The position numbers were made by a program, and so were the translations under genes. 64,000 nucleotides of DNA from an uncultured Verrucomicrobiae bacterium (GTDB taxonomy: Bacteria > Verrucomicrobiota > Verrucomicrobiia > Chthoniobacterales > UBA10450). The notes under the pieces are model-generated. The model worked only from the letters and a program-made list of their open reading frames with translations, made no database searches and was not told the origin of the DNA. Below, piece by piece: positions 29,795-59,184 of this stretch (position 1 is its first letter; the number at the start of each line of letters is the position of its first letter). The DNA lies in the NCBI GenBank assembly GCA_963815455.1, contig CAWFGO010000002.1, positions 416,001 through 480,000 on the forward strand, given 5' to 3'.

Positions 29795-29807
29795 AACTTT
29801 GTGCTTG
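29795..29807 (+). promoter_or_regulatory. Conserved 13-mer AACTTTGTGCTTG upstream of precursor 1
   Basis: Identical copies on the minus strand at 40063-40075 and 40591-40603; each lies 36-37 nt before an ATGAAAAC start. Confidence 0.8.
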
Positions 29808-29844
29808 ATCACTGATAGGCAACGGGGGCAAAAAGGGAACCGCC

Positions 29845-30475
29845 ATGAAAACTTCCTCCAAACAGCTTGTCATGATCGCGGGGCTATTGATGGTCCTGAC
29901 AATAATTGCAATCGCGGCAGCTAAACACGACAAGACCGGCAAGGTGACGTTTCGAGATTCGATGACTGTGATCATTCATCCCGGCACGAACATTTCAAAG
30001 CCGGATGAGAAAGCGCTCAACGACGTTCTGAAACATTACGATAAGTCGGTTTATAGGATCGAGACATATCAGAAGGGCAAACGCAAGAAAACGAAAGGTC
30101 AACTGATCGACATGTACATCGACAAAGCCACGGCGGCTGAGGTGAGCCGATTCCGAATTGGCTGGTCGTTCGATCAAGACGATTCAGTGCATCGGGCTCA
30201 CCTCACCTTCCTCGGTAAGTATGGGCAAGCCGGAAGCCGCTGCCTCCCCTACTTCGGTAAGCACTTCCGCGAAGAGCGCTGCCCCAGAGGCTGAGGCATC
30301 GCCTACGTCCGTCAGTTCAAATAAACCCAAGCCTTCTTTCTCACCGACTTCGGTTAGCCGGCCCCCGGACGACCCAAGACCTTCATCAGTAAGCAAGCCG
30401 CCAAAAATTTCCGAAGAAGAAGCCAAGGAACTGGTAAAACGCATCAAACCAATCCTGGAAAAATACAGTAAGTAG
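29845..30475 (+). CDS. Secreted precursor-like protein with five P[ST]SVS repeats (frameshift near 30145)
   Basis: Signal peptide MKTSSKQLVMIAGLLMVLTIIAIAAA; second frame gives SPSSVS, SPTSVS x3, RPSSVS and the C-terminal helix EAKELVKRIKPILEKYSK. Confidence 0.75.
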
Positions 30476-30498
30476 GCAGCGCATTTGCAAAACAGAGT

Positions 30499-31116
30499 GT
30501 GTCTTTAAGCCGGCGCAGAATCTATCTGGTCTGCTTTTGCCTGCACTTTTTCCTTCTTTTAACGGTTTCGTTTGACGCGACTCTGTGGGTTCTTTCCAAG
30601 GGATACACCTGGTTCCCGCATTCACTGGATCCGTATTGGGGTAGAGCGCAATCAGTCACTGCCACGGTTTTGGGGCGAACGCTGGAGGCCGGCCATCCGG
30701 CGCGAGAAGCGTTATACACTTATCTACACGCCGCCGGCATCGAGGGAGGGTATGGGTTTTTCGGACCGGCCGTTCCCAACAGTTACAAACTGGTATTCGA
30801 ACTGCATTACCTCGATGGCAGGGTTGAATACGAACTTCCCATTGTCGGCGGAGCCGCCGCTGGAGTGCGATTAGGCAACCTGCTCGATCAAATAGGACGA
30901 ACTCAGTACGACCCGCTGCGGGAAATGATGGTCAAGATGCTGGCCTATTCGGTCTGGCAGGAACATCCGGATGCCGAATCCATTAGAGCAGTATTTGGAT
31001 ACGTCGAATTGCCCAGCGTGGCCGAGGCAAAGGAAGGCAAAAAAGAAGCGTATACGTTCTTGTATGCATACGATTTTGGTTTTCGATCGCCGGCGGAGAA
31101 AGAGGTGCAGCCCTGA
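30499..31116 (+). CDS. Membrane-anchored SdpA/LinL/DUF5819-like protein
   Basis: N-terminal TM with LHF; YLHAAGIEGGYGFFGPAVP motif; directly upstream of an HTTM gene; paralog at 38936-39565. Confidence 0.65.
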   Translation: MSLSRRRIYLVCFCLHFFLLLTVSFDATLWVLSKGYTWFPHSLDPYWGRAQSVTATVLGRTLEAGHPAREALYTYLHAAGIEGGYGFFGPAVPNSYKLVFELHYLDGRVEYELPIVGGAAAGVRLGNLLDQIGRTQYDPLREMMVKMLAYSVWQEHPDAESIRAVFGYVELPSVAEAKEGKKEAYTFLYAYDFGFRSPAEKEVQP

Positions 31117-31121
31117 ACTTC

Positions 31122-32090
31122 GTGCAACGCTCCTGGCAAAGGATTAACGAATTCTTATTTCGGCCCGATACCGACAAATGGCTGACGCTACTGCGCATTG
31201 GCCTCGGCCTTGAAATTACGCTCTACTGCCTCTCGCTCCGAAACGATTGGGTGCATTTATTTGCCGGGAGCGGCAACGGTTTGATTAGCCGCGATCTGAC
31301 TGAAGCGATTTCGACGATCGACAGCCCCTGTATTCCAATTCTGAGCTGGCTGGTGGAATTGGGCAACCGGGTAGGACTGAGCGAACCATCTACGCTAACC
31401 GCGGCATGGACGCTGTTGTTTGGCGCCGGCTGTTTCCTTGTTCTCGGACTTTTTAGCCGCAGCGCGGCGGTCGCGGCCTGGTTCCTTCATCTTTGCGCAG
31501 TGAAAAGCGCGGATTTCATGGCTTATGGCATGGATAATTTCACCACCATCGGTCTTTTCTATCTGATGCTCGCGCCTTTGCCGGACGGTCTGGCGCTCGA
31601 TTCGAAGATCTGGAAAGCCCGGAAACGCGACCCGGCAATCCTGGGCTTTCATCGGCGGGTTTTGCAAATCCACATGTGCGTGATTTATTTTTTTAGTGGC
31701 CTAACGAAAGCCTTGGGGACCGGATGGTGGACCGGGGCCGCCTTGTGGCGAGCTCTCACTCGCCCACCGTTTAACATCATTTCGCCGGAACTTTTGGTGC
31801 CATGGCGACACCTTTTGCCGGCGCTGGGAATCCTCGTCTTTCTCATTGAGGTAGCGTATCCACTTTTTATCTGGCCCAAAAGGAGTCGCGCTGTCTGGAT
31901 CGGAGCAGTAGTGGGGATGCATGTCGGCATCGGAGTCATGATGGGCCTTTATCTATTTGCTCTCATCATGATTGTTCTAAACCTGGCGGCCTTCGCTCCT
32001 GGGATTGCTTTCATCGGCCGAAGAAATACTTTCGCGGCATGGCTGGGACGCGATTCTCCCCAAGCGCCCTCTTTCCAACCCAGCGGATGA
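31122..32090 (+). CDS. HTTM-domain membrane protein (SdpB/LinG/VKGC-like)
   Basis: LLRIGLG, LVLGLFSR, YGMD, LQIHMCVIYFFSGLTK..G.GWWTG.A, IEV, MHVGIGVMMGLYLF. Confidence 0.85.
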   Translation: MQRSWQRINEFLFRPDTDKWLTLLRIGLGLEITLYCLSLRNDWVHLFAGSGNGLISRDLTEAISTIDSPCIPILSWLVELGNRVGLSEPSTLTAAWTLLFGAGCFLVLGLFSRSAAVAAWFLHLCAVKSADFMAYGMDNFTTIGLFYLMLAPLPDGLALDSKIWKARKRDPAILGFHRRVLQIHMCVIYFFSGLTKALGTGWWTGAALWRALTRPPFNIISPELLVPWRHLLPALGILVFLIEVAYPLFIWPKRSRAVWIGAVVGMHVGIGVMMGLYLFALIMIVLNLAAFAPGIAFIGRRNTFAAWLGRDSPQAPSFQPSG

Positions 32091-32152
32091 ATGAATATTT
32101 GCCATCGACCGGGCCCAATAATCTGCCAGTGTTGAAAGGCGCGTGATTCGCC

Positions 32153-34529
32153 ATGTCCGCGGAAACAAATCCGGCAGTCGAGTTAGAGATCGCGCATGTT
32201 TTGTTCATCGATACGGTGGGCTATTCGAAACTTCTCATCGACGATCAGCGCGATCTACTCGACCGGCTTAACCGAATTGTTAAAAATACAAATCAAGTCC
32301 GAACGTCGGAGGCCGCCGGCAATTTAATCACGCTGCCGACCGGCGACGGAATGGCCCTGGTTTTTTCCGGCGCGCCGGAGGCGCCAGTTCAGTGTGCGCT
32401 CGAAATCAGCAAAGCCGCCCAAGCCGATCTGCGATTGCCGTTACGGATGGGGATTCATAGCGGTCCGGTCAGTCGAGTTGTCGATGTAAACGACAGATCC
32501 AACGCCGCGGGAGCGGGAATAAATATAGCGGAGAGGGTCATGGGTTTCGGCGATGCGGGCCACATTTTGCTGTCCAAACGAGCCGCCGACGATCTCGCGG
32601 CCTACGGACATTGGCGTCCGTTTCTTCATGAGATCGGCGAATACGAGGTAAAATACGGCGTAAAAGTGTCTCTGGTGAATCTTCACAAGGGAGAGGCGGG
32701 AAATGCCCAGCTGCCGGCGCGATGCAAAATGCTTCAACATCAGGCCCAGCGCGTTAAGATGCGTCGGCGCGCCCTCTACCTGTCGCTGCCGTTGCTCGTC
32801 ATTTCGGCGGTGACCGCCGCACTTCTTTTCCCGCGAGCGAATGTTGCGGACCTTTCTCCAAAGAGCATCGCCGTTCTGCCTTTTGAAAACTTGAGCGACG
32901 AAAAAGAGAACGCATTTTTCACCGGCGGCGTCCAGGATGAGATCTTGAGCGATTTGGCGAGAGTGGCCGATCTCAAGGTGATCAGTCGCACGAGCACGAT
33001 GCGATACAAGAGTTCCCCGGATCGCAATCTCCGGCAGATCGCCAAGGAACTCGGAGTCACTTATATTGTGGAGGGAAGTGTTCAACGTGTCGGAGATCAC
33101 ATCCGAGTGAGCGCACAATTGATCGATGCGCGGAGCGACATGCACATGTGGGCAGATCGCTATGATTCCGATGCAACCGACGTTTTTCGCATTCAAAGCG
33201 ACGTGGCCCAACAAGTGGTCGCACAGCTAAAGGCCAAACTTTCGCCTCAAGAAAAAGCCGCCATTGAGGAGCCACCCACCGATAACCTCGCTGCCTACGA
33301 TCTCTACCTGCGCGGCCGACGTCTCATCGACTCCAGAGCGTTCGAGGCGCGCCAGAAAGAAAGTCTCATCGAGGCGACGCGGTTGCTCGATGAGGCGATC
33401 GCGTTGGACCCTCAGTTTGTGCTCGCCTACTACCAACTGGCCACCGCGCACGATTTGATTTACTTCCAAGGCTACGATCACACGCCGGCTCGGCTGGCCC
33501 AGGCCGATGCGGCCGTGAACTCCCTGGTCCGTCTTCGTCCCGCTTCGGGCGAAGCTCACCTTGCGCTGGCCCAACATTTGCTACTGGGGATATCGCAAAT
33601 ACGATCAGGCGCGGGAGGAACTCGTCGCCGCTCGACGGGCATTACCAAACGAACCTCTGGTTCCGCTCCTGGAGGGTTATATTGATCGGCGACAGGGACG
33701 TTGGGATGAATCGATTCGGGAACTGGAAGGTGCGCTCCAGCTCGATCCACGCAATGTGTTGATTCTTCAGCAGGTCTCGTTCAGCTACGAGCTGTTACGC
33801 CGGTTCAAAGAAATGGCCGCCGTTCTGGATCGCGCTGTCGAACTGGTCCCGGCTGACCTTAGAACCAAGCTTCAACGGACGTTTGTCGATCTTGAATGGC
33901 ATGCTGATCCGCATCCGGCCCACTCAGTCATGCAAGCAATTCTGGCCGAAGATCACGAGACTGTCGCTTCGGTCGCAGATCGTTGGACATATCTCGCGCT
34001 CTACGAACGCGATGCCGCCGCCGGGATGCGCGCGGTGGCGCTGATTCCATCGGAAGGAATCAGCGAACTTGGCGTCAATTTTCCAGCGCCATGGTTTGAG
34101 GGATTGTTTGCGCGACTGCGGGGCGACCAGGCGAGCGCGCGCAGAGCATGGACCCGTGCGCACTCTGAGGTGGACAAAGCCGTGCAGAGCCAACCCGCTT
34201 ATGCCGAACAACTGTCCGTTCTGGGAATGATTGATGCCGCACTTGGGAACAAGGAGGCCGCCATTCGTGAAGGAAAACGCGCCGTCGAATTGCTTCCCAT
34301 GACGGCAGACGCGCTCAAGAACGGGCTACTAGTCGAGCACCTGGCAATTATCTACGCTTGGACCGGGGAGAAAGATCTGGCCTTCGAACAATTGGCCTAC
34401 GCCGCGCAGATCCCCTCCGAAATAAATTACGGTCATCTCCAGTTGCATCCTCTGTGGGATCCACTGCGGGGCGATCCGCGTTTCGACAAATTCGTAGCGT
34501 CGCTTGCGCCTCAACCGCAGAGCCCTTGA
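32153..34529 (+). CDS. Class III adenylate/guanylate cyclase - TM - TolB-N-like - TPR protein (frameshift near 33581)
   Basis: LFIDTVGYS, LPTGDG, RMGIHSGPV, GINIAERV; KSIAVLPFENLS; ORFs join at QHL/YWGY, matching paralog KHLYWGY; ends LWDPLRGDPRF. Confidence 0.88.
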
Positions 34530-34576
34530 CGAACGCGGGAGTGTCAGCTTCCCGTGCGGAACTCGATCATTCGTGT

Positions 34577-34942
34577 TTAGTCGGCCATGCGCGTGACCGT
34601 CACGGAAGCGTATTGGGCGTCGGGCAAAACAAATTTATGCAGTTCGACTTGAACTCGCCGAACCGGAAAAGTCTGCAAGAGATGGGCGGCAAGCTCCGCG
34701 GCCAGGGTTTCGATCAATTTAACGGAGCGGTCACCAACAAATTCGCGAGCAGCGGCACATAGAGCCGAGTAGTTAACCGTTCGGGTTATATCGTCCTCCA
34801 TGTCCTCAAATCTCGCGTTGGGCCAAACGGTCATGGACAAAGTGAGTCGCTGCGGTTGAGCGCGCTCCTTTTCCACGACGCCAACCCGAGCGAACAGTTC
34901 AAGTTGCTCGACATGAATGGAATCGGACGGGTCGGCTTCCAC
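34577..34942 (-). CDS. folB: Dihydroneopterin aldolase
   Basis: ARVGV..KER..PQRL, DDITRTVNY, LIETLA, VELHK. Confidence 0.9.
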   Translation of the reverse strand: MEADPSDSIHVEQLELFARVGVVEKERAQPQRLTLSMTVWPNARFEDMEDDITRTVNYSALCAAAREFVGDRSVKLIETLAAELAAHLLQTFPVRRVQVELHKFVLPDAQYASVTVTRMAD

Positions 34943-35408
34943 GCTGTAGCAGTTGCACGGCGAAGAGATTTCGCAACTGCGACGGGGAAAAAGCGAAGGC
35001 CGGGATTGACGCCGGCCCTCGCAGAAAATGATCGCGGATCAACCTGGATTACAAAAAAAGGGCAAAGGCGGCGGCGCACAGCTGGGTCCTAATCCAAGGT
35101 AGCCGCTCGAACTTCGGGGAGAACATATCTCGGTGACTCCCGAAGCTTTCGCGGCCCGCGCCAGCCGCCTTTGCAAAACCGATCGACGAACAAATTCTAA
35201 AGTAGCACGCCCGAAAGAACCTGGCACGGGCACCCGGCGCTTTCGATATGTGGTCGAGCGTTGTCTCTGCATCTCACCCACCTTCTCCGAGAACTGGAGG
35301 CCGTTGTTCGCGAATTTCTTTCGAAAATGTCAAAAAAAATTCGGCCGGCCAGCTACTGCGCTCGGCGAGCGGGGCCGCAATCGGCGGTAAGGCCCGGCAA
35401 TGGGTCGG

Positions 35409-37895
35409 CTATTTCGGAGCAAGAGAGGCCACGATCTCTTCGAACCGTGGGTCGCCGCGCAGGGGATCCCATGCTGGATTGAGACGCAACTCTCCGTAGC
35501 TGAGATGGCCGGGAAGTTTCACAGCCACGGCCAACTGGTGGCAAGCCGCCTCTTTATCGCCAACTGCAGCATAGATCGCCGCCATAAATTCAAGGCATAC
35601 CTCTCCGTCGATGGCATCTTTCTCAACCGGCAGCAACTCGACCGCCCGCCGCCCCTCTTCAATAGCCTTGTCCTTGTCGCCGAGCCCGGCATTCACTGAA
35701 CCGAGGGCGCAAAGAAGCGCGCCATTTTCGCCTTGGTTCCGAATATCTTCTTCTAGCTCTTTTCGCGCCTTGGCGAAGGCCGAACGCGCAGCAGTGGCAT
35801 CGCCACGGAGAAGCGCCACTCGGCCCTCACACCAGGCACGCGGGAAAACAAGTCCTTCAATACCGTACCCGCTGGTGGGAATCGCAGACAATGCGCGAAC
35901 TGCTGCCTTGGCGTCACGTTCGGCCAAAGCCAAATCAAACCAATCCCCCGCGAGGGTCGGGGCGTTATCTGGATTCTCAGCCAGGATAGCGTCGATGACC
36001 GAATGGAGCGGCCCGGGATCGGCACGCTGGGCGAGAGCGACCATGGCGTGGCGAACGCGCATCGTAATATCCGTAGGCACAATTATAAGGGCGCGGTCCA
36101 AGGTGGCCGTCATTTCTGAATAGCGGCGAAGGAATTCATAACTAAGCGCAATCTGGAGAAGGATCATTGGATTGCGCGGATCAAGGTCGGACGCGCGCTT
36201 CATGTTCTTAAGGGATTCCTCCCAGCGACCCTGTCGCCGGTCGATATAACCGGTCAACAGGGACGGCCACGGATCATTGGGCATCACGGTTGCGGCCGCG
36301 GCGAGTTCTTTTCGCGCGCCATCGTAATCGAGATAGCCCCAGTAAAGGTGCTTGGCCATGGCCAGATGTGTCTCGCCGGAGACGGGCCGAAGGCGGCGAA
36401 GCGATTCGATGGCGGCGGCGGCCAAGGCCAGCCGCCGCGGAGTCCGATCGATGAAGCCCCAGTAGAGCTGATCGTGAGCATGGGCCAATTGGTAGTAGGC
36501 CAGGGCAAATTTGGGATCGTGCGCCACCGCCTGCTCCAGAAGCCGCACCGCTTCCAACAGACTTGCCTCTTTCGGCTCGTTAAATACGGCGTGGTCGATG
36601 AGAACACGCGCCTGCGCGTATAAATCGTAAGCAATCAGATCGGCCGTAGGCTTTTCTTCAATGGCCGCTTTCTCGTTCGGAGACAGGCGCGACTTAAGTT
36701 GATCGACGATTTTTTCCGCCACCTCGTTCTCGATGGTGAATACGTCGGCCGCATTCCGCTTGTAGCTCTCTCCCCAAACATGCGTGTCGGTCCGGGCATT
36801 GATTAATTGAGCGCTGACCCGCACCAGATCGCCCGCACGCTGAACGGTTCCCTCCAGGATAAACGCGACCCCCAAGTCTTTGGCAATTCCGCGCAGGTTG
36901 CGCTCGGCCGCCTTCCTGTATTGCATCACCGACGTCCGGCTGATCACCTTCAGGTCGGCCACCTTGGCCAGGTTGGTCAATATTTCGTCCTGAACGCCGT
37001 CGGCAAAGTAAGCGTTTTGTTTGTCGTCGCTCAAGTTCTGGAAGGGCAGAACAGCGATACTCTTCTCGGGAATCACAACGTTCGATTTGAAGAAATGTGA
37101 AAAACCTACCGTGAGAGCGATGGCGATGACGCATCCCAGCAAAGCAATCCCGGCCGCCCACTTCGGCCAGCGCGGTCCGTAAATCGGACGAATGGTCGCA
37201 CTCGATGTTTGCCCCCATCGGCGTCGCCTGAGTTTTTCGGGGACATGCGGGTTGCCCACGCCATCCTTGCACAGATTGAAAATGTGCAACCGCAAGCCGT
37301 GCTTCGCTTCGCACTCGCCCAGATCGCGCAGGAATGGCTGCCAACTGCGATACTCGGCCAGATCATCCGCCACATGTTTCGAGAGCAGAATATGTCCGGC
37401 ATCGCCGCAATCCATCACCCGCTGGGCCACATTAATTCCCGCGCCGGCAACGTTGATCGTCTCGTTAACATCTTTGACTTGGTTGACCGGACCGCTGTGG
37501 ATCCCCATCCGCAACTGGATGTGCGGCTGTTTGCGCAGTTCATTGCTGATGGCTACTGCGCATTGAACCGGTTCTTCGGGGCTGCGAAAAAAAAGCAGCG
37601 CCATGCCGTCCCCCGTGGGCAAGCGAATGAGCTTCCCTGCTTTTTCCGCTTCTTGAAAACACTCGGTCCCGCGCACGACTCGGTTGAGCTCCTGCAGAAG
37701 CTCAATCTGCTCGTTAACCAGCAATTTGGAATAACCGACGACGTCGATTAACAACAGGTGCGCGATCTCCAACGGGAGATCCGGCTTGGCTTCAGCGGAT
37801 GTGTCTTGCGCGCTCAACGGTCGATTCGGGGCAAAAGATACTCCCAGTTCCACGCCCCGCCATCCAGACAAATGGAAGACGCTCGGATTGGCCAT
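35409..37895 (-). CDS. Class III adenylate/guanylate cyclase - TM - TolB-N-like - TPR protein
   Basis: LLIDVVGYS, LPTGDG, RMGIHSGPV, GINVAQRV, TM, KSIAVLPFQNLS, TPR-like helices, WDPLRGDPRF. Confidence 0.92.
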   Translation of the reverse strand: MANPSVFHLSGWRGVELGVSFAPNRPLSAQDTSAEAKPDLPLEIAHLLLIDVVGYSKLLVNEQIELLQELNRVVRGTECFQEAEKAGKLIRLPTGDGMALLFFRSPEEPVQCAVAISNELRKQPHIQLRMGIHSGPVNQVKDVNETINVAGAGINVAQRVMDCGDAGHILLSKHVADDLAEYRSWQPFLRDLGECEAKHGLRLHIFNLCKDGVGNPHVPEKLRRRRWGQTSSATIRPIYGPRWPKWAAGIALLGCVIAIALTVGFSHFFKSNVVIPEKSIAVLPFQNLSDDKQNAYFADGVQDEILTNLAKVADLKVISRTSVMQYRKAAERNLRGIAKDLGVAFILEGTVQRAGDLVRVSAQLINARTDTHVWGESYKRNAADVFTIENEVAEKIVDQLKSRLSPNEKAAIEEKPTADLIAYDLYAQARVLIDHAVFNEPKEASLLEAVRLLEQAVAHDPKFALAYYQLAHAHDQLYWGFIDRTPRRLALAAAAIESLRRLRPVSGETHLAMAKHLYWGYLDYDGARKELAAAATVMPNDPWPSLLTGYIDRRQGRWEESLKNMKRASDLDPRNPMILLQIALSYEFLRRYSEMTATLDRALIIVPTDITMRVRHAMVALAQRADPGPLHSVIDAILAENPDNAPTLAGDWFDLALAERDAKAAVRALSAIPTSGYGIEGLVFPRAWCEGRVALLRGDATAARSAFAKARKELEEDIRNQGENGALLCALGSVNAGLGDKDKAIEEGRRAVELLPVEKDAIDGEVCLEFMAAIYAAVGDKEAACHQLAVAVKLPGHLSYGELRLNPAWDPLRGDPRFEEIVASLAPK

Positions 37896-37954
37896 TCACC
37901 ATTCTCCTCCGAAAATCGGGGCGAGAAGTTCGAGCAACGCTGCCGAGAACCAAA

Positions 37955-38932
37955 TCAAGCGAGATCGACTGGGCCTGAGTCGAGCGCTTCATTTTTCAAC
38001 TTCGATTCGATTCGGGAAATCCAGATTAATTCAGGACCAAACGCGGACAGGTTCAGGACAATCATGATCAGGGAAAAAAGATACATCCCCATCGCGAGTC
38101 CGATCGCGGCATGCATTGCCATAATTCCAATCACCCAGACGGACCGCGTTCTCCGGTAGCAAATGAAAAGAGGGTAACCCATTTCCAGTACCACGACGGC
38201 GATGCCCGCGACCGGGAGAAGATATTTCCAGCGTATCACTGTTTCCGCGGGAATGAGATCGAAGGGCGGTCTGGTCAGGGCCAGCCAGAGATTCGCTCCG
38301 TTCCACCAGCCGCTTCCCAACGCCTTGGATAGACCGCCAAAAAAATAGATTAGACATAGATGGATCTGCAAAACGCGTCGCCAAAAGCCGAGCAACTCCG
38401 ATCGGCCCGGGCTATTCGGAGATTGTTGCGCTTGTCGATCTTGGGTCCGCCATTGTCGATCCAGTGAAAACCGGTCCGGCAACGGCGATAACATCAAATA
38501 GAAAAGCCCGATGGTCATGAAATTGTCGGCGCCATAGGAAACGAGCCCGCCGCTTTTGGCCGCGCAAAGATGAAGGAACCAAGCCAGGATCGCTGAGGAT
38601 CGACAGAAAAGACCCGTGATCAGGCCGCAACCAGCAGTGAGCAACCCGACCCAGGCCGCTTGAAGCACGGTTTCTTCGGTCAAGCTAACATAATTACCCA
38701 GAGCGACGAGCCATCCGAATCTGGGAACCAGAGGGCTCTCCAGCGAGAGAAGTTTCTCCGCCAGATCGCGGCTGATCAGACCATGACCGGTCCCGGCTAA
38801 CAAATAATTCCAGTCGCGACACAATGAGAGCGCGTAAAGCACAACCTGCACCCCAAGGCCCAGCCTCAAAATAACCAGCCAACGATCCGTTTCCGATGGA
38901 AACAGAAAACCCATGAATTTGGCACTGCCCAT
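37955..38932 (-). CDS. HTTM-domain membrane protein (SdpB/LinG/VKGC-like)
   Basis: ILRLGLG, GLFCR, YGADNF, LQIHLCLIYFFGGLSK..G.GWWNG, MHAAIGLAMGMYLF; paralog of 31122-32090. Confidence 0.85.
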   Translation of the reverse strand: MGSAKFMGFLFPSETDRWLVILRLGLGVQVVLYALSLCRDWNYLLAGTGHGLISRDLAEKLLSLESPLVPRFGWLVALGNYVSLTEETVLQAAWVGLLTAGCGLITGLFCRSSAILAWFLHLCAAKSGGLVSYGADNFMTIGLFYLMLSPLPDRFSLDRQWRTQDRQAQQSPNSPGRSELLGFWRRVLQIHLCLIYFFGGLSKALGSGWWNGANLWLALTRPPFDLIPAETVIRWKYLLPVAGIAVVVLEMGYPLFICYRRTRSVWVIGIMAMHAAIGLAMGMYLFSLIMIVLNLSAFGPELIWISRIESKLKNEALDSGPVDLA

Positions 38933-38935
38933 TTC

Positions 38936-39565
38936 CTAGTGCTTCCCCGGCTCAGCCGTTTTTTCGCTAAGCGTGAAATCATACGCATACAAAAATTCGT
39001 ACGAGCCGCGCTTTCCCTTTTCGAACTCGCTCATTGCGGGCAGGGTGGCCGCGCCGAACACGGCCCGGATCGTTATCGCATCGGGATGCGCCCGCCAAAC
39101 AGAGTGGGCCAGCATCCTGATCATGAGCCTGCGCAACGGTTCGTAGTCGGTGCGTCCAATCTGGTCGAGCAAGCTGGCCAGGCGTAATTCACCGGCCGAG
39201 CTGTTAACCCGCGGCACCTCGGCCTCGACGTGTCCATCCGGATAATGCAGCTCAAAAACCAGTTTGTATCCGCCCGGGATATTCGGCGCAAAATAACCGT
39301 AACCGGTTTCGATACCGGCCAGGTGCAAATACGTTGTGGTTGCCTGGCGGATCGGATTTGACGAAGACAATCCCCGGCCTAACGGCACGGAGGCGACCGC
39401 TTCAGCTTTGCGCCAGTACGATGCGTCTGACGATGGCACGATCGTCAGCCCGTGCCTGATAAGCCAGAACGTTTCGCGGCATGAAACCGCGATGACGAGC
39501 AGGAAATGCAGGCAGAAACCGGCGCAGTAAACGCACCTCGTTAGCCGAGCCCTTCCCGAGTTCAG
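38936..39565 (-). CDS. Membrane-anchored SdpA/LinL/DUF5819-like protein (start uncertain)
   Basis: Frame is open upstream of the called GTG 39439 and encodes CVYCAGFCLHFLLVIAVS, matching the paralog's N-terminus; YLHLAGIETGYGYFAPNIP. No canonical start in frame (CTG 39565 or sequence error). Confidence 0.65.
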   Translation of the reverse strand: MNSGRARLTRCVYCAGFCLHFLLVIAVSCRETFWLIRHGLTIVPSSDASYWRKAEAVASVPLGRGLSSSNPIRQATTTYLHLAGIETGYGYFAPNIPGGYKLVFELHYPDGHVEAEVPRVNSSAGELRLASLLDQIGRTDYEPLRRLMIRMLAHSVWRAHPDAITIRAVFGAATLPAMSEFEKGKRGSYEFLYAYDFTLSEKTAEPGKH

Positions 39566-40026
39566 AACGAATCCACGACCTTCTTCAGATCGGCCGCGCT
39601 ACTGGTAGCCACTCGCTGGGTAACCTGCACACGGCCTTTGGCTTCGGTCGTGCTTTCTGCGCCAGCCACCTGAGTTCCATGCACTGAGCCCCTGATCCCG
39701 CTCCCAGCGCCGGTTGTCCCCGAACTGGCCGAACCGCTGGTCACAACACTACTGAACGGGGGGCCACTCGCCTCCCCGGCAGCCTCTTTTATCGTGACCT
39801 TAGTGCCATTGGCCCCATCTTTGTCGATCTTGTTAAGTAGATCTTTGAAATCGGCCACAGTTGAATTTTTCAGTTCGACATAAGGGTTTCCCTTTATTTC
39901 AAGAACATAGATCGTCCCTTGCGAGGTCGGAGCCTGGGCGAAGGCTCGGAGAGTCAAACCGGCCAGGAGACCGATCACCGCCAAAACAATCAGCTTAAAT
40001 GCAAACGTTCCAGATAGGGTTTTCAT
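39562..40026 (-). CDS. Secreted precursor-like protein 2a (Ser/Thr/Gly-rich; SVHGTQ and RVQVTQ cores)
   Basis: MKTLSGTFAFKLIVLAVIGLLAGLTLRAFA signal; shares F.DLL..ID..G.NGTKV.I with 2b; C-terminal helix DLKKVVDSF. Confidence 0.75.
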   Translation of the reverse strand: MKTLSGTFAFKLIVLAVIGLLAGLTLRAFAQAPTSQGTIYVLEIKGNPYVELKNSTVADFKDLLNKIDKDGANGTKVTIKEAAGEASGPPFSSVVTSGSASSGTTGAGSGIRGSVHGTQVAGAESTTEAKGRVQVTQRVATSSAADLKKVVDSF

Positions 40027-40062
40027 AGCGCCATCCGGTTTGACTCCGCGCTTTGCCTTTAG

Positions 40063-40075
40063 CAAGCACAAAGTT
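40063..40075 (-). promoter_or_regulatory. Conserved 13-mer AACTTTGTGCTTG upstream of precursor 2a
   Basis: Continues as TTGCTA-N17-CAAACC then GGATGGCGCT-ATG. Confidence 0.8.
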
Positions 40076-40113
40076 TGGTGGTCCCGGCAGAGAGACGCGC
40101 CGCTACATCGAAA

Positions 40114-40554
40114 TCAGGGGCTGGGCGACGTCGTGGGCGCTGCTTCGTCCGTTACCGCTGAACCCGCTTCGAAAAAATCCAGAACCGCCTTCAACTTCTG
40201 AGGATCGTTGCTTCTCACGCTCTGCGTACTGTGAACAGACCGCTTCGGGCCAATTACAGTTTGAGCCTGATCGAACGTATCGTTCTGCGTAGGCCCCTCG
40301 ATCTCGCTCGCGTCGTCATCCCTTGGCCTGATGTTGACTTTCGTTCCGTTCGTTCCCTTCGAATCGATATCTTTCAACAAATCTTCGAACGCCCCCAATT
40401 GGTTCAGATCTTTCAACCGCACCCGTTGGCCGTTGACGATGTTGAGCTTGAGAACGTATGACGTTTGCGGTTTCTTCGGGCCGAACGTGTTATACAGATA
40501 GGTTCCCCCAACTGCGACAGCGGCTCCGAGCAGAAATGTGATTACAGTTTTCAT
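40114..40554 (-). CDS. Exported precursor-like protein 2b (SVHSTQSV core)
   Basis: MKTVITFLLGAAVAVGG N-terminus; paralog of 2a; helix KLKAVLDFF. Confidence 0.75.
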   Translation of the reverse strand: MKTVITFLLGAAVAVGGTYLYNTFGPKKPQTSYVLKLNIVNGQRVRLKDLNQLGAFEDLLKDIDSKGTNGTKVNIRPRDDDASEIEGPTQNDTFDQAQTVIGPKRSVHSTQSVRSNDPQKLKAVLDFFEAGSAVTDEAAPTTSPSP

Positions 40555-40590
40555 AGTGCCGTCCGGTTTGAGCCTGCCCCTACGGAATAG

Positions 40591-40603
40591 CAAGCACAAA
40601 GTT
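40591..40603 (-). promoter_or_regulatory. Conserved 13-mer AACTTTGTGCTTG upstream of precursor 2b
   Basis: Continues as TTGCTA-N17-CAAACC then GGACGGCACT-ATG. Confidence 0.8.
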
Positions 40604-57165: not shown

Positions 57166-57810
57166 GTGATCTCCCACAAATATAAATGCATTTTCGTTGA
57201 AGTGCCCAAGACCGGATCGACCAGCGTCCGGGCCATTCTGGGTAAGGCGTGGAAACCGCATCTGAACTTGTGGCAGATCAAAAATCATATGGAGAACTAT
57301 TGGACGCATTTCGGCGGGACAAAAAACCGGATTCTCGAAGTGATCTATCCAGCGTTGTCGAAGGAGCGGCGAAAAGAAATCGGCCAAAAACAATTCGAGA
57401 CCTATTTCAAATTTGGATTCGTTCGCAATCCGTGGGACCGGGTGGTCTCGTTGTACGAGCGCAACGAGGCCGGCACGCTCAAAGACAAGATGACCTTCGA
57501 ACAGTTTGTGGATTGGATCCAATACAGCAGCGCTACTTGCATTCACTCCTCGCCGCATCGCTATCAACTGGACTGGTTCGTCGATCCTAATGGCAATGTC
57601 CTGGCCGATTTCATCGGAAAATTTGAGCGCCTCGAAGAAGATTGGGCTCGGGTCGCCCAAAAACTTGGGATCGCGGAAAAACTGCCGCATCGCCGGGCCA
57701 ACCCTCGGGCCCGACATTACACCGAATATTATAATCCTCGGACACGAGAGGTGATCGCGAACAAGTTCAAGGTGGATATCGAACGATTTGGTTATGAGTT
57801 CGAAGGGTAG
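57166..57810 (+). CDS. Sulfotransferase family 2 protein
   Basis: ISHKYKCIFVEVPKTGSTS (5'-PSB), FVRNPWDRVVSLY (3'-PB), FIGKFERL, DIERFGY. Confidence 0.9.
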   Translation: MISHKYKCIFVEVPKTGSTSVRAILGKAWKPHLNLWQIKNHMENYWTHFGGTKNRILEVIYPALSKERRKEIGQKQFETYFKFGFVRNPWDRVVSLYERNEAGTLKDKMTFEQFVDWIQYSSATCIHSSPHRYQLDWFVDPNGNVLADFIGKFERLEEDWARVAQKLGIAEKLPHRRANPRARHYTEYYNPRTREVIANKFKVDIERFGYEFEG

Positions 57811-58766
57811 GATTAAGGCGATCGTTCTGAGCTGCGATCGCTATCGGCCGATCGCCGAGCACATGATGCTTCAATACGAACGCTTGTGGCCGGAACATCC
57901 GTTTGTTTTTCATATTCCGTATCAGAATTTGGCCGGGCAGGAATCTGAACGGACCCGATATTTCGAGACACCGGAGGAAATCAGGCCAACGGTTCTGCAA
58001 TTGCTCGCGGGGATCGACGACGAGGAGTGGGTCTACTGGTGCGTAGACGACAAGTATCCGATTCAGCTTGTTACCGGCAAAATTGACGAACTAATCACCG
58101 ATGCGATGAAATCGTAAGTTGGGTGATATGCTGGTGATTAGTTCGTCATTTTGCCGGTACAAGCTGAATCGGATACTTGTCGTCTACGCACCAGTAGACC
58201 ACTCCTCGCCGCTCGCTATCAACTGGACTGGTTCGTCGATCCTATGGCATGTCCTGGCCGATTTCATCGGAAAATTTGAGCGCCTCGAAGAAGATTGGGC
58301 TCGGGTCGCCCAAAAACTTGGGATCGCGGAAAAACTGCCGCATCGCCGGGCCAACCCTCGGGCCCGACATTACACCGAATATTATAATCCTCGGACACGA
58401 GAGGTGATCGCGAACAAGTTCAAGGTGGATATCGAACGATTTGGTTATGAGTTCGAAGGGTAGGATTAAGGCGATCGTTCTGAGCTGCGATCGCTATCGG
58501 CCGATCGCCGAGCACATGATGCTTCAATACGAACGCTTGTGGCCGGAACATCCGTTTGTTTTTCATATTCCGTATCAGAATTTGGCCGGGCAGGAATCTG
58601 AACGGACCCGATATTTCGAGACACCGGAGGAAATCAGGCCAACGGTTCTGCAATTGCTCGCGGGGATCGACGACGAGGAGTGGGTCTACTGGTGCGTAGA
58701 CGACAAGTATCCGATTCAGCTTGTTACCGGCAAAATTGACGAACTAATCACCGATGCGATGAAATC
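57545..58766 (+). repeat. 653-bp-period direct duplication joined by an inverted error-rich segment (probable artefact)
   Basis: 57545-58113 recurs at about 58200-58766; 58137-58208 is the reverse complement of 58021-58100 with small deletions. Confidence 0.85.
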
Positions 58767-59184
58767 GCCCGATATGAGCGGTCTACTTTTCTGTCGATGC
58801 CGGGTCACCCTGGACAGTCCCAAACTCACGCTTTATCCGAAGAAACGAGTCAACGCATTTGGCGATATCTATTTCGAACGCAAAGCTTGGTATCAAATTT
58901 GGATTCATCAGCTTCTGCGGGCCAAGGTGCTTCGCCATCTCTTCACTCAAATGCCGGCCGATATTCCGTCGGCGAAAGCAATGGATAAGTTAAAAGATGA
59001 TGTGGAGAAACTGACCGAGCAGCGGCTGTTTGTGACCAAGGAGAACTTTGCGATCTTCGGGGAAAGCACCAACCGCGGATCGATCACGCAAAATTGCTAC
59101 GAGAGCATCCGACGCACGAACATCGAGCTTCCCGATTGGTTTCAAAATCCCAACGGCAAATATGTGACGCTTGGGAAACTGTAG
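58447..59184 (+). CDS. Hypothetical glycosyltransferase-like protein
   Basis: AIVLSCDRY, VYWCVDD; truncated duplicate at 57794-58117. Confidence 0.65.
   Translation: MSSKGRIKAIVLSCDRYRPIAEHMMLQYERLWPEHPFVFHIPYQNLAGQESERTRYFETPEEIRPTVLQLLAGIDDEEWVYWCVDDKYPIQLVTGKIDELITDAMKSPDMSGLLFCRCRVTLDSPKLTLYPKKRVNAFGDIYFERKAWYQIWIHQLLRAKVLRHLFTQMPADIPSAKAMDKLKDDVEKLTEQRLFVTKENFAIFGESTNRGSITQNCYESIRRTNIELPDWFQNPNGKYVTLGKL

Follow-up and report, generated by a model that had tools for sequence, protein, structure and literature searches.

A conserved promoter-like element upstream of precursor genes in two putative peptide-modification modules of an uncultured Verrucomicrobiae bacterium

In a stretch of 64,000 nucleotides (nt) from an uncultured Verrucomicrobiae bacterium of the order Chthoniobacterales (contig CAWFGO010000002.1, positions 416,001 to 480,000; hereafter the window), two gene modules carry an identical 13-mer, AACTTTGTGCTTG, before each of three genes for signal-peptide-bearing 'precursor' proteins. 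Judged by sequence comparison, this 13-mer is a local variant of a longer motif, AAnTTTrkGC-TTGnnA-N17-CAAACC (r = A/G, k = T/G), which is found 6-11 nt before the ATG of homologous genes across Chthoniobacterales. Direct observation covers the sequence and conservation of the motif as well as its fixed geometry and its confinement to the modules, and this supports a promoter-like, conserved cis-element specific to these modules. The 13-mer very probably belongs to a promoter. Our preferred reading, to which we give a probability of roughly 0.6, is that it forms the upstream half of a likely near-leaderless sigma70-type promoter and includes a proximal UP-type element to which RNA polymerase itself binds.

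Sites and conservation of the motif

Exact copies of the 13-mer lie at 29795-29807 (+), 40063-40075 (-) and 40591-40603 (-), and the window holds no further site even when two mismatches are allowed. A search of the source assembly (3,619,036 bases; completeness 89.98%) returns 3 exact matches, 6 with at most one mismatch and 55 with at most two. The gap from the 13-mer to the ATG is 37, 36 and 36 nt at the 29795, 40063 and 40591 sites, respectively, and all three precursor genes begin with ATGAAAAC, a start shared by 44 of 3348 predicted genes. The identical 13-mer, the distance of 36-37 nt and the common MKT starts had been reported in a preliminary description of this DNA and are borne out at each site. 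The same description had noted a promoter-like extension, TTGCTA-N17-CAAACC, in module 2; both module-2 copies contain it, and module 1 has a counterpart that had been overlooked, TTGATC-N18-CAAAAA, whose 18-nt spacer is seen again in relatives of the module 1 type.

The predicted promoters can be laid out as follows. In module 1, the upstream element AACTTTGTGC occupies 29795..29804 (+), corresponding to -45 to -36 and hence to the predicted proximal position of an UP element, and scores 26.2 bits with a matrix built from relatives only; the predicted core promoter spans 29805..29834 (+), with the -35 TTGATC at 29805-29810, the -10 CAAAAA at 29829-29834 and a predicted +1 near 29841. The predicted promoter of the module-2 gene P2b (40037..40075, -; 41.9 bits) comprises an upstream element at 40066-40075, a -35 TTGCTA at 40060-40065, a 17-nt spacer and a -10 CAAACC at 40037-40042, with transcription predicted to start near 40030. 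That of P2a (40565..40603, -; 42.1 bits) has its upstream element at 40594-40603, TTGCTA at 40588-40593, the same 17-nt spacer and CAAACC at 40565-40570, with a predicted +1 near 40558.

Evidence for conservation comes from the family to which the source genome belongs, whose members are mostly labelled Verrucomicrobiota, Chthoniobacterales or Ca. Udaeobacter. A gene for an HTTM-domain protein, a component of each module, was detected in 208 of the 355 genomes that make up the family; elsewhere in the order, 1 of 133 genomes has one (genomes marked as unpublished, namely G003, G008, G015, G053, G158, G216 and G217, enter into this tally and those of ECF proximity, Crp-HTH matches and the loose and strict motif scans below, and into no other claim). 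The first open reading frame (ORF) upstream of each module was chosen by signal-peptide features, with the motif unused, which gave 62 distinct ORFs; five modules with too little upstream DNA and nine without a first ORF were dropped, and among the latter L019, L062 and L073 carry the motif while the other six do not exceed 17 bits. Before the 52 long precursors, CTTG stands at the right distance in 50, TTTnnnCTTG in 42 and a CA[AG]A[AC] -10 in 46, and the exact 13-mer is present in just three. The ten short precursors (85-109 amino acids; L041, L044, L045, L072, L074, L080, L081, L084, L090, L091) form a class of their own, with TTGACA in 10/10, TTT at -42 to -40 in 7/10 and often G at -7, and their loci often lie downstream of a gene for an extracytoplasmic function (ECF) sigma factor. 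Conservation ends at -45: no position from -106 to -46 exceeds 0.21 bits, which leaves no upstream operator half-site.

The motif is also specific. A matrix from 48 relatives' sites exceeds 20 bits in the source genome only at the three window sites (42.1, 41.9 and 26.2), and nowhere in the reversed genome; TTTnnnCTTG stands at the same distance before 4 of 2462 other genes. A strict pattern gives 54 matches in 49 of the 355 family genomes, against 2 control matches. HTTM genes are present in 47 of these 49 genomes, and the remaining two matches lie near contig ends; when 20 strict matches were fetched, 17 had an ORF directly behind them, 16 of which match a precursor profile. A looser pattern applied to 65 genomes yields 37 matches, 28 at modules or precursors and 9 elsewhere, with 10 in the control. 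A wider regulon for the full motif was accordingly rejected, there being no further such site in the source genome beyond those of the modules and no excess over control off the modules in the 65 relatives. The scans of the genome and of relatives that the preliminary description had proposed thus find the motif uncommon before unrelated genes and kept upstream of homologous precursors.

It could be objected that the motif is an unselected leftover of duplication. The modules are indeed paralogous, P2a and P2b are tandem copies, and full identity over 13 bases is evidently dispensable among the relatives. However, the motif has been kept while its flanks and most of the spacer diverged and while the proteins fell to about 25% (precursors) to 60% (enzymes) likeness. 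An element acting in RNA or translation fares no better, given that no Rfam match or unusual fold was found and that the motif occurs without an adjacent ATG at L020, L170 and L177 (G342:C155), the last of which is followed by a receptor gene only. We regard both versions as very improbable. Each precursor gene would instead owe its own copy of the promoter to joint duplication of promoter and gene, followed by retention under selection. In one relative (L266, G191:C14), whose genome yielded neither CRP nor the kinase-linked ECF sigma factor, two modules converge as they do in the window, and each has the promoter motif.

Promoter geometry and candidate readers

Genome-wide, TTG peaks 35-39 nt before the ATG, with 74-95 genes per position against about 45 (on our own gene calls), and a model fitted without the modules reads TTG(C/A)nn-N16-18-nAnnnT with 6-10 nt to the ATG. 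The module sites share this geometry. Since the TTG of the motif coincides with the -35 of the genome, the 13-mer would correspond to -45 to -33 of a near-leaderless promoter, its last three bases being the predicted -35 TTG and the preceding ten covering -45 to -36. More generally, many genes of the source genome appear near-leaderless, with TTG-N20-nAnnnT ending 6-10 nt before the start codon, and -10 variants lacking T-12 or T-7 are common, though CarD was not found. A CarD-dependent promoter was rejected for the motif on the same ground, as the only match in the 89.98% complete genome is of Mfd length.

Several features expected of a sigma70-type promoter are present at the module sites, namely a -35 TTGnnn, a spacer of 16-18 nt (18 nt in 6 of 53 sites), A at -11 and the geometry of the host. 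The expected T-12 and T-7 are not: CAAACC has C at both positions, and T-7 occurs in none of the 53 long-precursor sites. An A/T tract at -45 to -37 abuts the -35, as expected of a proximal UP element, whose subsite has been placed at -45 to -37 (PMC2613000) and centred near -43, A/T tracts of 3 nt being sufficient (PMC3326320). The short AAnTT dyad of the motif is likewise centred at -43. In E. coli, the promoter upstream of rrsB, which we take to be rrnB P1, reads AAATTTCCTC-TTGTCA-N16-TATAAT and has AAnTTT-nnn-C-TTG in the register of the module motif. The host RNA polymerase alpha subunit's C-terminal domain (alphaCTD) matches solved alphaCTDs and retains VRAANCL and NFGKKSL, whose residues, beyond R265, we presume to contact DNA. 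In the proposed mechanism, alphaCTD would bind the AAnTTT tract centred at -43 beside region 4 of sigmaA, the non-consensus -10 CAAACC would be offset by the strong upstream half, and the first transcribed base would lie about 4 nt ahead of the ATG.

A number of observations weigh against this reading. The absence of T-7 from 53/53 sites, together with near-invariant A-10 and A-9, exceeds the specificity that sigmaA normally requires. Of the 53 sites, 29 have C or G at -43, and just 18 show an unbroken A/T run. Natural UP elements are described as showing little position-specific conservation (PMC3326320), and rrnB P1 itself scores only 7.4 bits with the core matrix and 1.6 bits with the upstream matrix. 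Moreover, the TTT tract is found at 2 of 16 good tRNA promoters and in none of 46 rows (one a duplicate) of control orthologous promoters, which belong to folB, rpoN, an ABC gene and a gene for a small secreted protein. A weak genome-wide excess of T at -42 to -40 is seen in decoys as well; TTT stands at 25/486 promoters with a weaker -10 and at 1/81 with a strong one, and decoys are enriched too. A generic sigmaA feature was rejected, as TTT and GC occur together in 0 of 113 candidates; GC or C alone at -37/-36 is common, also in the four control families. Lastly, the precursor and ECF-kinase promoter families both have the tract and the four control families do not, a pattern that may indicate a dedicated factor.

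Among the matches listed, 29 of 66 HTTM loci have within 10 kb an ECF sigma gene of the FxTTRWS type, behind which comes a kinase-TolB-N-TPR gene. When the promoter of this ECF operon was located by -35/-10 geometry alone, with upstream bases unused, it was found in 41 of 46 relatives, with C-36 in all 41, T-41 in 35, TTT in 24 and an ordinary -10. The TTTnnnC-TTG core thus appears to mark the promoters of ECF-sigma/kinase-TPR operons too, which are often adjacent to the modules, and ECF promoters carry it even where a genome has no HTTM match. The comparison was made post hoc, with three ancestral promoter families on one side and four on the other, and related genomes do not count as independent. 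With the core at ECF-kinase promoters and absent from the controls, a dedicated non-CRP activator or an alternative sigma factor has to be weighed.

In the first of these alternatives, -45 to -36 would be the site of a dedicated, family-wide non-CRP activator that touches sigmaA region 4 and switches on the deliberately weak -10 promoters of both precursor classes and the ECF-kinase-TPR operon. The ECF promoters, the empty control rows and the proximity of ECF genes to HTTM loci all speak for it, as do base-specific conservation with a tolerant -43 and the absence of T-7 from every site; CarD was not found. However, the site measures just ~10 base pairs and has no second half-site, no candidate regulator gene other than the ECF recurs beside the modules, the ECF promoter of the source genome is itself degenerate (TTTGGA-TTG), and the family comparison carries the weakness of its small, related sample. 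We consider such an activator unlikely, if less so than the other alternatives.

An alternative sigma factor reading CTTGnnA-N16-TCAAAC, either a group-2-like sigma or an ECF other than the kinase-linked one, is more doubtful still. In its favour, conservation of the -10 is very high and spacing is identical in all 54 strict family-wide matches; a group-2-like sigma, highly conserved (C1:459485; WWIKQSIKR, versus WWIRQAITR in RpoD), is present in 5 of 5 relatives tested; and ECF sigma factors are reported to need near-consensus promoters and to have, in some cases, small local regulons (10.1101/2020.06.23.168245). Against it, the ECF and short-precursor promoters with the same upstream core have an ordinary sigmaA-type -10 or -35, a core-only scan above 15 bits gives 30 matches against 41 in the control and adds a single intergenic site with no gene behind it, and the spacer is 18 nt in some sites. 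The kinase-linked ECF as obligatory reader was rejected, as it was not found in G007, G191 and G204, three motif-bearing genomes that are 98-99% complete. The sequence TTTAACC-TTGTTA upstream of the group-2-like sigma gene (C1:459265-459485) matches the core element, with no clear -10. A sigma54 promoter, suggested by the neighbouring rpoN, was likewise set aside, because the GG-N10-GC consensus, whatever the offset, occurs in no more than 11 of 53 sites.

The preliminary description had favoured an operator for a CRP/FNR-family regulator responsive to cyclic nucleotide monophosphates (cNMP), fed by the cyclases of the modules. Both window modules do end in a class III cyclase-domain gene, the source genome has nine ORFs with cNMP-binding domains, and an FNR-like half-match, centred on the -35, averages 5.2 of 10 bases. 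Yet this claim does not hold up well. No CRP/FNR-type protein was found in the source genome or in motif-bearing G007, G191 and G020 (95-99% complete), with the proviso that, the genomes being incomplete, the absences of regulators reported here stand for 'not found'. The sole Crp-HTH match in the source genome is marginal, at 27.1 bits over profile positions 23-56 of 70, and falls in a 160-residue protein that reads as MarR-type, none of the nine cNMP-binding ORFs has such a match, and full-length matches (E<1e-8) are present in just 7 of 24 family relatives. The site includes the -35 TTG, no dyad of the CRP (TGTGA-N6-TCACA) or FNR (TTGAT-N4-ATCAA) type was found upstream or at -41.5, the best upstream CRP match covers fewer than 4 of 10 bases, and the nucleotide specificity of the cyclases is only putative. 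A cNMP-responsive operator is the least probable of the readings weighed here, and the motif is best read as a pathway-specific promoter. The persistence of the element where CRP (G007, G191, G020) or the kinase-linked ECF (G007, G191, G204) was not found argues for a family-wide reader, for which RNA polymerase with sigmaA is the simplest candidate, followed by an activator and then by another sigma factor.

Genes of the two modules

Each module runs from a signal-peptide gene through a partner without family match and an HTTM gene to a gene for a class III cyclase/TolB-N-like/TPR protein, and the two are convergent, with folB between them. Module 1 begins with P1 (29845..30475, +), a 'precursor' with SPTSVS repeats whose homologues align in two frames and whose own frame breaks near 30146, which suggests an assembly indel or a pseudogene. 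It is followed by A1 (30499..31116, +), which has no Pfam match and sits in the SdpA/DUF5819 gene position as partner of the HTTM protein; by H1 (31122..32090, +), an HTTM-domain membrane protein (PF05090, 28.9 bits against a cut-off of 27.7); and by the first cyclase/TolB-N-like/TPR protein (32153..34529, +), which lies in two frames split at about 33561-33685. Both frame breaks may be assembly indels or signs of a decaying module 1. On the opposite strand, module 2 comprises P2a (40114..40554, -; 146 amino acids), P2b (39562..40026, -; 154 amino acids; 29% identical to P2a), A2 (38936..39565, -; 52-55% identical to A1), H2 (37955..38932, -; 55% identical to H1) and the second cyclase/TolB-N-like/TPR protein (35409..37895, -). 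The open frame of A2 extends to a CTG at 39562-39565 (-) that overlaps the P2b stop codon and is probably its start.

The enzymes of the modules are therefore paralogues, at 52-55% identity, and the precursors too seem to be related. By BLAST, P1 shows no similarity to P2a or P2b, and the preliminary description had seen no visible likeness either. A profile of 44 P2-type relatives nevertheless reaches P1-type proteins at E values of 8e-5 to 0.67 (window P1 at 0.0098), and a profile-profile comparison gives E 6e-4 at 29% probability; this is a weak but consistent link that suggests remote homology. As the modules are paralogous and the precursors remotely homologous, the shared motif is not independent evidence that the modules form one regulon, and that part of the earlier interpretation has to be given up.

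Many of the precursors have Thr/Ser-rich repeats. Specifically, P1-type precursors have tandem repeats (SPTSVS, TTNPQQ, TSSTHP or THVT) flanked by a conserved domain at the N-terminus and an amphipathic helix at the C-terminus (window 30240-30400; L025, L026, L065, L087), and these look like multi-core peptides. Because the thresholds of the SdpB and TIGR04510 families are not reached, we infer the label 'precursor' from gene order and repeat-rich variable cores. In its structural model, the HTTM protein H2 is similar to the membrane domain of GGCX (best E 1e-4, TM-score up to 0.57); a search of PDB sequences with the HTTM profile found nothing, and in the ESM Atlas P2b had no usable match and A1 matched hypothetical clusters only. 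The cyclase domain of the second cyclase/TolB-N-like/TPR protein (window 37200-37895, -) is closest to Rv1900c/Ma1120-like class III cyclases. At what we take to be the substrate-selecting positions it reads RLPTGD and INVAG, which makes specificity for cyclic AMP uncertain.

Two further observations concern the wider genome. TolB-N/TPR proteins with variable N-termini are expanded, with 21 ORFs in the source genome and 61 matches in G097; the expansion is seen at C1:235327-251023 and in G097, G204 and G007, and some of it forms long tandem arrays. At about 57790-59184 (+) of the window, two neighbouring ORFs share the same long initial sequence, MSSKGRIKAIVLSCDRY, which suggests a local duplication or an assembly artefact.

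Significance and comparison with known systems

The motif precedes secreted-protein genes of what looks like an undescribed peptide-modification module in common soil bacteria. A literature search limited to titles and the openings of abstracts, with few subscription papers covered, returned no description of the module and no promoter map for the clade. Taken by itself the cis-element is modest, namely a pathway-specific variant of a sigma70 promoter with an UP-like tract. It nonetheless provides a sharp promoter model for a clade with no promoter map in the literature searched, reveals a genome rich in near-leaderless genes and serves as a precise marker for hypervariable precursor genes that BLAST and Pfam miss. 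A bolder and, in our estimation, rather improbable hypothesis is a circuit of peptide signalling in Chthoniobacterales, Ca. Udaeobacter among them. In it, the Thr/Ser-rich cores of hypervariable, exported precursors would be modified by HTTM/GGCX-like enzymes; the large families of TolB-N/TPR receptors, with a cyclase or kinase as output, would sense the products; and a dedicated, family-wide non-CRP factor would read AAnTTTrkGC-TTG and co-induce precursors and the ECF-kinase operon in a quorum-sensing-like loop. Were the activator or signalling reading true, it would give a dominant and mostly uncultured lineage of soil bacteria a first cell-to-cell signalling circuit.

Several known systems invite comparison. 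Like E. coli rrnB P1, the module promoters have an A/T tract at -45 to -40 that abuts the C-TTG of the -35 in the same register, in a host with conserved alphaCTD motifs. Unlike rrnB P1, which serves rRNA and tRNA genes, they are confined to one pathway, lack a distal subsite, have the non-consensus -10 CAAACC, are near-leaderless and show base-specific conservation. CRP/FNR class II sites resemble the module element in abutting or overlapping the -35, and cyclase genes do lie downstream; however, the module site has no 22-bp dyad and nothing conserved above -45, and several genomes that carry the motif yielded no CRP. Among kinase-associated ECF groups (ECF43, 59-62, 217, 283), an ECF gene is likewise followed directly by a kinase gene (PMC7826278). 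The supplement of that study lists ECF59, 61, 62 and 217 from Planctomycetes only and ECF283 from Proteobacteria only.

With respect to the modules themselves, Bacillus sdpABC/yitPOM place a signal-peptide precursor of about 150-200 amino acids next to an HTTM gene and a small gene for a membrane-anchored protein (PMC6818787), and the present modules likewise unite a secreted precursor, a small partner and an HTTM gene in one operon. In contrast to sdpABC, the module HTTM proteins score 18.8 and 24.1 on the SdpB model (cut-off 178.4), partner A has no SdpA/DUF5819 match, no C-terminal hydrophobic toxin helix is evident, and a cyclase-TPR gene follows instead. HTTM proteins have been implicated in Thr/Ser dehydration of linaridins (LinG/CrdG; PMC9927463) and in bacterial carboxylase-like complexes (GGCX/MloH; 10.64898/2026.08.19.745780), with which the modules share the HTTM domain, the GGCX-like fold and Thr/Ser-rich repeats. 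They differ from linaridin clusters in having no alpha/beta hydrolase, LinL, methyltransferase or decarboxylase genes and in having exported proteins or lipoproteins as precursors. Finally, the 'putative peptide modification system cyclase' family TIGR04510 has other modification enzymes and is matched at only 37.6 bits against a cut-off of 400, yet the weak match (E 1e-9) comes with a shared arrangement, in which a cyclase-TPR protein ends a peptide-modification cluster.

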